From Alphaproteobacteria bacterium (lineage in GTDB: Bacteria; Pseudomonadota; Alphaproteobacteria; CAAHEQ01; UBA3637): 64,000 nucleotides of DNA. Each line of letters starts with the position of its first letter. The first letter of the stretch is position 1. Position numbers and translations under genes: made by a program. Shown here piece after piece: positions 47,711-48,124 of this stretch. The notes under the pieces are model-generated. The model saw only the letters and a program-made list of their open reading frames with translations, was not told the origin of the DNA and made no database searches. Where the stretch lies: NCBI GenBank assembly GCA_045611705.1, contig JAZKXR010000007.1:117262-181261 (forward strand), in the 5' to 3' direction.

Positions 47711-48124
47711 ATGCCGGTTATTTTTACAAAACAAAACAGAGAATATACACGTCAAATGCGTAAAGAATTTGATCATAAAAGATTAAATCGTGTTTTTGTA
47801 TTATGGCTTTATCGTTCGGGTAAGTTAGAACCTTATGCCAAACAAATCAATTTGGCCCGTGCGGCCCGTGGATTGATTCCGAAAGGTTATGATGTGCATC
47901 ATATTGTGCCTTTATCTGGTGGCGGAAATAACAAGATTTCCAATTTGTGTCTGATTGATAAATCGTTGCATAAATTTATCAATAAAAAGTGTTTTGATCC
48001 GGCCTTGAACAGGATTAAAGAAGGGGAAACAACTATTGTAAACGTGCCTGATTTTGGTCGGATAGCCTTACGCCGTGATTATCAAAGCTGGATTGATAAG
48101 GTGTTGGCCAAAGAAAGAAAATAA
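47711..48124 (+). CDS. Small HNH endonuclease-domain protein
   Basis: 137 aa with an HNH core YDVHHIVPLSGGGNNKISNLCLIDKSLH. It starts 2 nt after the recG stop. Confidence 0.65.
   Translation: MPVIFTKQNREYTRQMRKEFDHKRLNRVFVLWLYRSGKLEPYAKQINLARAARGLIPKGYDVHHIVPLSGGGNNKISNLCLIDKSLHKFINKKCFDPALNRIKEGETTIVNVPDFGRIALRRDYQSWIDKVLAKERK

Follow-up and report, generated by a model that had tools for sequence, protein, structure and literature searches.

Research on RecG goes back more than 30 years, and no natural nuclease partner of this helicase is known. In E. coli the small nuclease RusA can replace RuvABC only if RecG is present; RusA, a product of a silent prophage, is the only nuclease that works in this way, no efficient natural partner of RecG is known in this organism, and any others must be very inefficient (PMC5055574). 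His-Me finger nucleases show little specificity on their own and are tailored by added elements, and the superfamily includes enzymes that cut branched DNA, Rap/NinG of phage lambda and endonuclease VII of phage T4 (PMC5714182). Human ZRANB3 unites a fork-remodelling translocase and an HNH nuclease domain (PMC5481773). Here we describe a gene for a small HNH protein that directly follows recG in an uncultured alphaproteobacterium (assembly GCA_045611705.1, contig JAZKXR010000007.1, positions 117,262 to 181,261 of the forward strand; this whole stretch of 64,000 nucleotides is called the window). The HNH fold is a known one. What appears to be new, as judged from sequence, is its conserved genomic partnership with recG, and the function of the pair is putative.

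It is useful to compare the window protein with its closest known relatives, the DNase domains of the type VI secretion system toxin Rhs2-CT of Serratia marcescens (PDB 8cm0, 9t38) and of LXG and WXG100/PT-TG toxins. Rhs2-CT is a metal-dependent DNase, in which the first His of the HH pair is assigned to the metal and the second to the HNH catalytic motif (bioRxiv 10.1101/2025.10.28.685041). Unlike these toxins, the window protein has neither a delivery region nor an immunity gene; it is a cytoplasmic, stand-alone, vertically inherited protein, and its family has a C-terminal helix of its own (residues 121-136), which is longer in most members. The last metal ligands are placed differently as well, on a canonical helix in the window protein (H87, N91) and on a loop in Rhs2-CT.

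The systems that combine branched DNA with a nuclease are less close. ZRANB3 carries its SNF2 translocase and C-terminal HNH domain in one polypeptide and is under the control of PCNA, whereas the window has a superfamily 2 helicase, RecG, and an HNH protein encoded by two cistrons, with no such control; the likeness is limited to the generic HNH core. RusA is similar in being a small nuclease whose usefulness in vivo depends on RecG (PMC5055574), but its fold is different and its gene, which lies in a cryptic prophage and normally stays silent, has no linkage to recG, whereas the window nuclease would be a constitutive partner in the recG operon. Rap/NinG and endonuclease VII, of the same superfamily, show that an HNH core can become specific for junctions or D-loops (PMC5714182). 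We found no specific homology of the window protein to these His-Me resolvases; a NinG protein was among the weak matches in BFVD (probability 0.87 over 48 residues). The match to the Cas8-HNH protein of type I-F Cascade (PDB 8ydb, 8w1p) was limited to the core, about 37-75 residues, and the window region has no CRISPR context.

Conservation of the recG-HNH gene pair

The distribution of the HNH gene was scanned using one genome per species, which yielded 67 full-length loci. All 67 come from uncultured gut, rumen or faecal metagenome-assembled genomes (MAGs) and are alphaproteobacterial, two of them carrying the label Lactobacillales. These two (L032 and L057) contain the alphaproteobacterial orf135-recG-HNH block and are recorded as 'uncultured Lactobacillales bacterium', probably as a result of mis-binning or mislabelling. 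A reading of the window made from its sequence only (the sequence-only reading) had proposed a survey of recG neighbourhoods in related genomes; the survey placed the HNH gene directly 3' of recG in 59 of the 67 species-level genomes. When the window proteins were used as tblastn queries, the order orf135 - recG - HNH, all on the same strand, was recovered in nearly all 67 loci. One of the 59, L061, looked unlinked at first sight and was rejected as such: its contig is cut, the first 54 nt encode the C-terminus of RecG, and it was counted as linked. We searched the literature on RecG in combination with HNH, operon, nuclease or fork reversal, and found no description of a recG-coupled HNH gene.

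The two genes are not only adjacent, they are also closely spaced. In 56 loci the HNH gene begins between -7 and 11 nt from the recG stop. One locus has a gap of 24 nt, and two (L028 and L055) have a spacer of about 155 nt that contains a Shine-Dalgarno motif of its own. In the 56 tightly coupled loci, out of the 59 linked ones, the sequence AGGA, GGGG or GGAG overlaps the recG stop or immediately precedes it. In the window, the last recG codons (ending in K-A-G-stop) contain a Shine-Dalgarno-like GGGG 5-8 nt 5' of the HNH ATG, and a promoter scan upstream of the HNH open reading frame (ORF) showed nothing that stands out (17 matches, compared with 13.7 ± 4.1 in shuffled sequences). This layout is typical of translational coupling, from which we infer that the two proteins are co-translated. 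The identity of the upstream gene is clear: RecG scored 807.1 bits against the NCBIfam equivalog NF008164 (cutoff 785), with residues 4-679 covered.

The sequence-only reading had pointed to an unusual HNH nuclease gene translationally coupled to recG, starting 2 nt after the recG stop and followed by a strong hairpin. All of this held up on closer analysis, the layout of the junction being shared by 56 of the 59 linked loci. The RNA fold of the hairpin on the plus strand has a free energy of -16 kcal/mol (z = -4.0), and none of 200 shuffled sequences was as stable. The terminator scan assigned the hairpin mainly to the minus strand, where it is accompanied by a T-run, as the terminator of rpsI. 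Because it is situated between convergent genes and was scored on the minus strand, we read it as a shared bidirectional terminator, which probably ends both the recG-HNH and the rpsI transcripts.

RecG and the HNH protein have diverged together. Over 1431 pairs their pairwise identities correlate with r=0.79; at every distance RecG is the less conserved of the two. Synonymous sites are saturated between subclades; in unsaturated pairs the ratio of nonsynonymous to synonymous substitution rates (dN/dS, Nei-Gojobori) is 0.01-0.04 for the HNH gene compared with 0.04-0.12 for recG. The GC content of the HNH gene, overall and at third codon positions (GC3), matches that of recG and of the rest of the window. 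That the 137-amino-acid ORF far exceeds chance follows from the 93 clusters of homologues, the conservation over the full length and the low dN/dS. Tight coupling was kept in 56 lineages while the downstream neighbours turned over dozens of times in the same period: the first downstream ORF of at least 100 amino acids belongs to 36 families in 58 loci. The HNH gene thus belongs to the vertically inherited core, and recG is its one stable neighbour.

In the HNH tree the eight unlinked loci group together as one nested clade, hence the recG/HNH junction broke once. The nearest neighbours of this clade include both loci with the 155-nt spacer, which suggests one event of loosening and translocation. 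The new contexts vary: the gene is found near a HipA-like/XRE pair, next to rpsB-tsf, near gatB, or among pilin-like genes. In three of these loci (L029 4422-5928, L043 3904-5409 and L044 2249-3752) two ORFs of about 100 and about 395 amino acids lie just upstream of the relocated HNH gene; judged by eye only, they resemble an XRE-type regulator and a HipA-type kinase, respectively. The scan returned one recG-type locus per species-level genome, and two genomes also have a weaker second HNH match. Second, larger HNH-containing ORFs were seen in genomes of the unlinked clade (L029 63-1202, L068 4995-5123 and L069 5334-5462); one of them encodes 379 amino acids with the motif 'NIHHFFPIVLGGTNNPDNLYL', the others are core matches of 44% identity, and the context of these paralogues is unrelated to recG.

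The HNH protein and its toxin-type relatives

The HNH core noticed in the sequence-only reading, DVHHIVPLSGGGNNKISNLCLIDKSLH, is present at residues 61-87 of the window protein. In an alignment of 37 sequences (A1) the family is conserved from end to end, with a mean column identity of 69%, and the invariant positions include D61, H63, H64, P67, S69, G71, G72, N74, N78, C80, H87, N91 and C94. The sequence-only reading would have been weakened if the motif residues had failed to align with those of known HNH enzymes. They do align: sequence-level searches matched the HH...N...H core with Cas8f-HNH (the type I-F Cas8-HNH; E 2.5e-6), Rhs2-CT and pyocin AP41, and the match to Rhs2-CT of Serratia (E 0.004) included the N-terminal helices. 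By its residues the motif, D-x-H-H ... N ... H-xxx-N, is of the colicin/Rhs type.

The AlphaFold2 model built from the 37-sequence alignment is confident (predicted local distance difference test, pLDDT, 94.7; predicted template modelling score, pTM, 0.86). It consists of a short N-terminal strand, three helices, a hairpin (60-64/79-83), a helix (84-99), two short strands and the C-terminal helix (121-136). The model thus shows the metal finger of the HNH superfamily, made up of a beta-hairpin and the alpha-helix after it, and H63-H64, N78, H87 and N91 occupy the positions of the catalytic His where the first strand ends, the structural Asn and the metal ligands on the helix. The protein is basic, with an isoelectric point of 10.2. 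It appears to be an active nuclease, to judge from the intact active site.

Assignment to a described family, for which HNH_2 or HNH_5 had been suggested, failed. All Pfam HNH models stayed below their thresholds, at 17-19 bits (score/threshold for HNH_3 19.4/24.8, HNH 18.7/21.4, HNH_4 17.5/22 and HNH_5 17.3/27.5). Searches of NCBIfam, PADLOC and PHROGs returned no defence model and no named family, the trace match in NCBIfam being to the HNH part of IscB, and an exact look-up of the window protein gave no record. The HNH protein is, as its sequence places it, a divergent subfamily outside the current models, with the active-site residues intact. It has no N-terminal domain for the recognition of modified DNA in front of the HNH domain, and it is neither McrA-like nor a homing endonuclease.

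Searching the databases with the HNH protein gave 93 homologue clusters, nearly all of them unnamed and from MAGs of Alphaproteobacteria. An exhaustive profile search extended this to 647 representatives at E <=1e-3, of which only two clusters at 50% identity make up the family proper. The more remote full-length relatives are small stand-alone proteins, and beyond these come the toxin domains at the C-termini of an LXG and a WXG100/PT-TG protein; in hhalign comparisons residues 3-114 of the window protein aligned with the LXG and PT-TG toxin DNase domains at 98% probability and 28-32% identity. Homologous toxin domains are thus found in Rhs, LXG and PT-TG proteins. No region for delivery or secretion was found in the HNH protein, whose nuclease domain begins at residue 3 of 137 and which contains no other domain. 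Nearly the entire protein, as read from its sequence, is a self-sufficient DNase warhead; the C-terminal helix alone is specific to the family, and there is no substrate-recognition domain. Among the best 150 of the 647 relatives the larger proteins are toxins (LXG, PT-TG) or have the HNH match only or no domain match at all.

The genomic context was looked up for four distant relatives (P0245, P0249, P0265 and P0102). Two of them stand alone on the chromosome, another is preceded by fic, and one is part of a phage module for replication that includes RusA, Rad52 and SSB. The one in the phage module, P0265 (145 amino acids; locus L077 on an 81.6-kb Logan contig of SRR17030624), is in a phage-like region, where it adjoins a faint match to MazG and is near a replication/recombination module that contains SSB, Rad52, RusA, DnaA_C and an IstB-like protein. 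Such a context suggests that phages may be a reservoir of this HNH superfamily.

A possible nuclease partner for RecG and the alternatives

The sequence-only reading had offered three roles for the HNH protein: a homing or selfish nuclease, the toxin of an unrecognised pair, or a recombination accessory factor. The third, a putative role, fits the evidence best. We favour, tentatively, the view that a domesticated HNH nuclease acts with RecG on branched DNA. A single-domain, active DNase of the colicin/Rhs-toxin type (beta-beta-alpha-metal) would have become fixed behind recG in the ancestor of a gut/rumen clade of Alphaproteobacteria, and has since then been inherited vertically under very strong purifying selection. 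Ribosomes finishing recG could re-initiate at the ATG one base further on, which would yield little nuclease and tie its amount to that of RecG. RecG would supply the targeting by binding and remodelling reversed forks, Holliday junctions, D-loops, R-loops and 3' flaps, and the HNH protein would nick or cleave the branched structure bound by RecG. In this it would resemble RusA, which needs RecG in order to resolve junctions, or the HNH domain of the fork-remodelling translocase ZRANB3. We assign the targeting to RecG because the HNH protein has no substrate-recognition domain of its own; as a bare nuclease module it must owe its specificity either to a partner or to the structure of the DNA, and RecG is the obvious candidate. 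Tightly coupled, conserved gene pairs often encode interacting proteins, and a physical or a functional partnership between RecG and the HNH protein would be consistent with this.

Several observations weigh against such a partnership. Adjacency alone does not prove it: a distal gene needs the promoter upstream, and for that reason alone such junctions resist breakage. In the clade of eight species the gene has left recG and is still just as strongly constrained (dN/dS 0.01-0.05), so coupling in cis is dispensable. No Rosetta-stone fusion was detected, that is, neither a RecG-HNH fusion nor any helicase domain was present among the best 150 of the 647 relatives, and none of the four distant relatives whose context was looked up adjoins recG. 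Rhs2-CT, the closest homologue that has been characterised, cuts DNA non-specifically. Finally, both the interaction with RecG and the structure-specific cleavage are things that we infer.

Alternatively, the HNH protein may be a housekeeping nuclease unrelated to RecG, a domesticated HNH enzyme possibly of phage or toxin origin, whose gene came to lie behind recG in the ancestor of the clade and which uses the linkage only for low and safe expression through the recG promoter and translational coupling. This is a serious possibility, which we place second. Eight species keep an equally constrained gene off recG in at least four different contexts, L028 and L055 with their long spacer and own Shine-Dalgarno motif look like an intermediate state, the distant relatives are scattered with none of those looked up linked to recG, and junctions inside operons are intrinsically hard to break. 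The sequence-only reading had named a conserved housekeeping HNH gene found unlinked elsewhere as an argument against its own view; such genes exist in the one derived clade and among the distant relatives, not in the 59 linked species. On the other hand, a gap of at most 11 nt was kept in 56 lineages in spite of synonymous saturation between subclades, and dozens of downstream neighbour turnovers took place in the same period. The HNH protein has no targeting domain, and neither a neighbour nor a family match hints at another role.

The toxin homology raises the question of whether the gene is a selfish element, a homing endonuclease behind recG or the toxin of an addiction pair with an unrecognised antidote. 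It is related to the DNase warheads of Rhs, LXG and WXG/PT-TG polymorphic toxins, one remote relative resides in a phage replication module, and a HipA-like/XRE pair lies nearby in three unlinked loci. We nevertheless consider this explanation very unlikely. The absence of an evident immunity gene, already noted in the sequence-only reading, extends to the other loci: an all-against-all comparison of downstream ORFs of at least 40 amino acids found no family common to more than 10 of 64 loci, and on neither side is there a conserved adjacent ORF that could be an antidote. In the window the next gene 3' of the HNH gene is the convergent rpsI. The only other recurrent neighbour, orf135, had no match in Pfam, NCBIfam or PADLOC. 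It lies upstream of recG in nearly all linked loci with enough upstream sequence and, in tblastn searches, never beside unlinked HNH genes; it belongs to the conserved synteny block, and probably not to the function. As an antidote it was rejected, because its N-terminus is signal-peptide-like and it is absent beside the unlinked HNH copies.

The other properties of mobile HNH genes are missing too. The gene was recovered at a single recG-type locus per species-level genome and has a composition that matches the host; the patchy, horizontal distribution and the intron, intein or phage context of homing nucleases were not seen in the family, and neither was a delivery domain. A search of the 2.9 million viral contigs of IMG/VR found no full-length copy, only six matches restricted to the core, and a Foldseek search of BFVD gave nothing below E 1e-3. 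Co-divergence with RecG, purifying selection, composition, the lack of viral copies and the downstream turnover together exclude a homing or selfish element, contrary to the first role offered above, and strongly disfavour a toxin-immunity pair. Of the second role the toxin ancestry stands, through the homology to Rhs, LXG and PT-TG domains; the partner and the delivery domain do not.

A restriction-like nuclease directed against foreign DNA (phage, plasmid or transforming DNA), similar to McrA-type and other stand-alone HNH enzymes and co-expressed with recG by chance, seems improbable to us. No PADLOC model matches, there is neither a recognition domain nor a partner gene, and the loci are not defence islands. 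Defence genes of this kind are typically patchy, horizontally transferred and fast-evolving, whereas the HNH gene is vertically inherited with a dN/dS of 0.01-0.04, below that of recG. The sub-threshold scores of all Pfam HNH models and the absence of the zinc-knuckle CxxC pairs found in many HNH proteins could also mean that the protein does not cut at all and has a DNA-binding or regulatory role on an HNH scaffold. We give little credence to this, as all catalytic and metal-binding positions of the colicin/Rhs-type motif are invariant in the family and selection acts on the whole motif. To our knowledge, colicin-type HNH enzymes likewise lack CxxC pairs.

A more specific form of the partnership with RecG is suggested by the ruv genes of the window. 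The arrangement ruvC-ruvA-ruvB is usual in many Alphaproteobacteria. No ruvC was found in the 64-kb window (one of the window searches used RuvC and RusA query sequences entered by hand), within 10 kb of ruvA in three relatives, or in the 67 loci. The dnaB / ruvA..ruvB..ybgC..tolQR layout of the window, again with no RuvC domain in a range of 10 kb, recurs in the three relatives (L086, L087 and L088), whose RuvA is 83, 72 and 69% identical to that of the window; the MAG of one of them also contains the HNH locus L023. Because ruvA and ruvB are present and ruvC is missing from its usual place in the window and the three relatives, it is conceivable that the HNH protein is a dedicated endonuclease partner of RecG, which would form with it a machine of two proteins for the migration and subsequent cleavage of Holliday junctions or reversed forks, and that it may have replaced RuvC in these organisms. 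We regard this as rather unlikely. As the search covered the window, the 10-kb flanks and the HNH loci, ruvC may be elsewhere in these genomes, which is a further point against the partnership in this form.

Features of the window and what the gene pair may mean

The coordinates of the recG-HNH locus and of the ruv region are collected in the table below.

Table. Features of the recG-HNH locus and the ruv region (positions in the window)
Feature	Position	Strand	Description
recG	45670..47709	+	679 aa; helicase for branch migration and fork remodelling; Pfam DEAD, Helicase_C, RecG_dom3_C; first cistron of the recG-HNH pair
Coupling junction	47703..47713	+	GGGG 47703-47706, TAA 47707-47709, T 47710, ATG 47711-47713
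HNH / His-Me-finger nuclease ORF (putative)	47711..48124	+	137 aa, basic, second cistron
Catalytic core (predicted), residues 61-91	47891..47983	+	D61-x-H63-H64 ... N74 ... N78 ... H87-xxx-N91
GC-rich 10-bp hairpin	48129..48152	strand-neutral	stems 48129-48138 and 48143-48152; between the HNH gene and convergent rpsI-rplM
orf135	45260..45667	+	signal-peptide-like hydrophobic N-terminus; ends 2 nt before the recG ATG
dnaB ... tol region	16752-25249	dnaB minus	dnaB upstream of ruvA on the other strand
ruvA	about 18330..18950
orf191	18947-19522		unannotated, 191 aa, signal-peptide-like N-terminus; between ruvA and ruvB
ruvB	19532..20575
ybgC-like thioesterase gene	21580-21987
tolQ/R/A-like genes	23234-25249

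Two other features of the window were noticed. Ribosomal protein S9, the product of the convergent rpsI (48169-48747, minus strand; 192 amino acids), has at its N-terminus, before the Pfam S9 domain (72-192), about 70 additional residues that are rich in Lys, Glu and Ala. At 42326-43337 (plus strand) two neighbouring ORFs have similar N-termini (MLKIRPA..DAxDIATINTLGWK) and appear to be paralogues, the second being a GNAT acetyltransferase; the pair looks like a tandem duplication just 5' of rluD.

If the linkage to recG serves expression only, what remains is an HNH subfamily, new and without a name, from uncultured gut Alphaproteobacteria. Whatever its role, a toxin-type and presumably non-specific DNase is here the product of a core gene, cytoplasmic and with no immunity protein, and one may ask how its activity is kept in check or directed. 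Should ruvC prove to be absent from these organisms, the HNH protein is a candidate for a replacement resolvase that works with RecG, and if this were true, it would be the first natural RecG-resolvase system, made from a domesticated toxin-type DNase. A recG-coupled nuclease that is present throughout a lineage and is more constrained than recG itself is a concrete, testable candidate for a partner of RecG.
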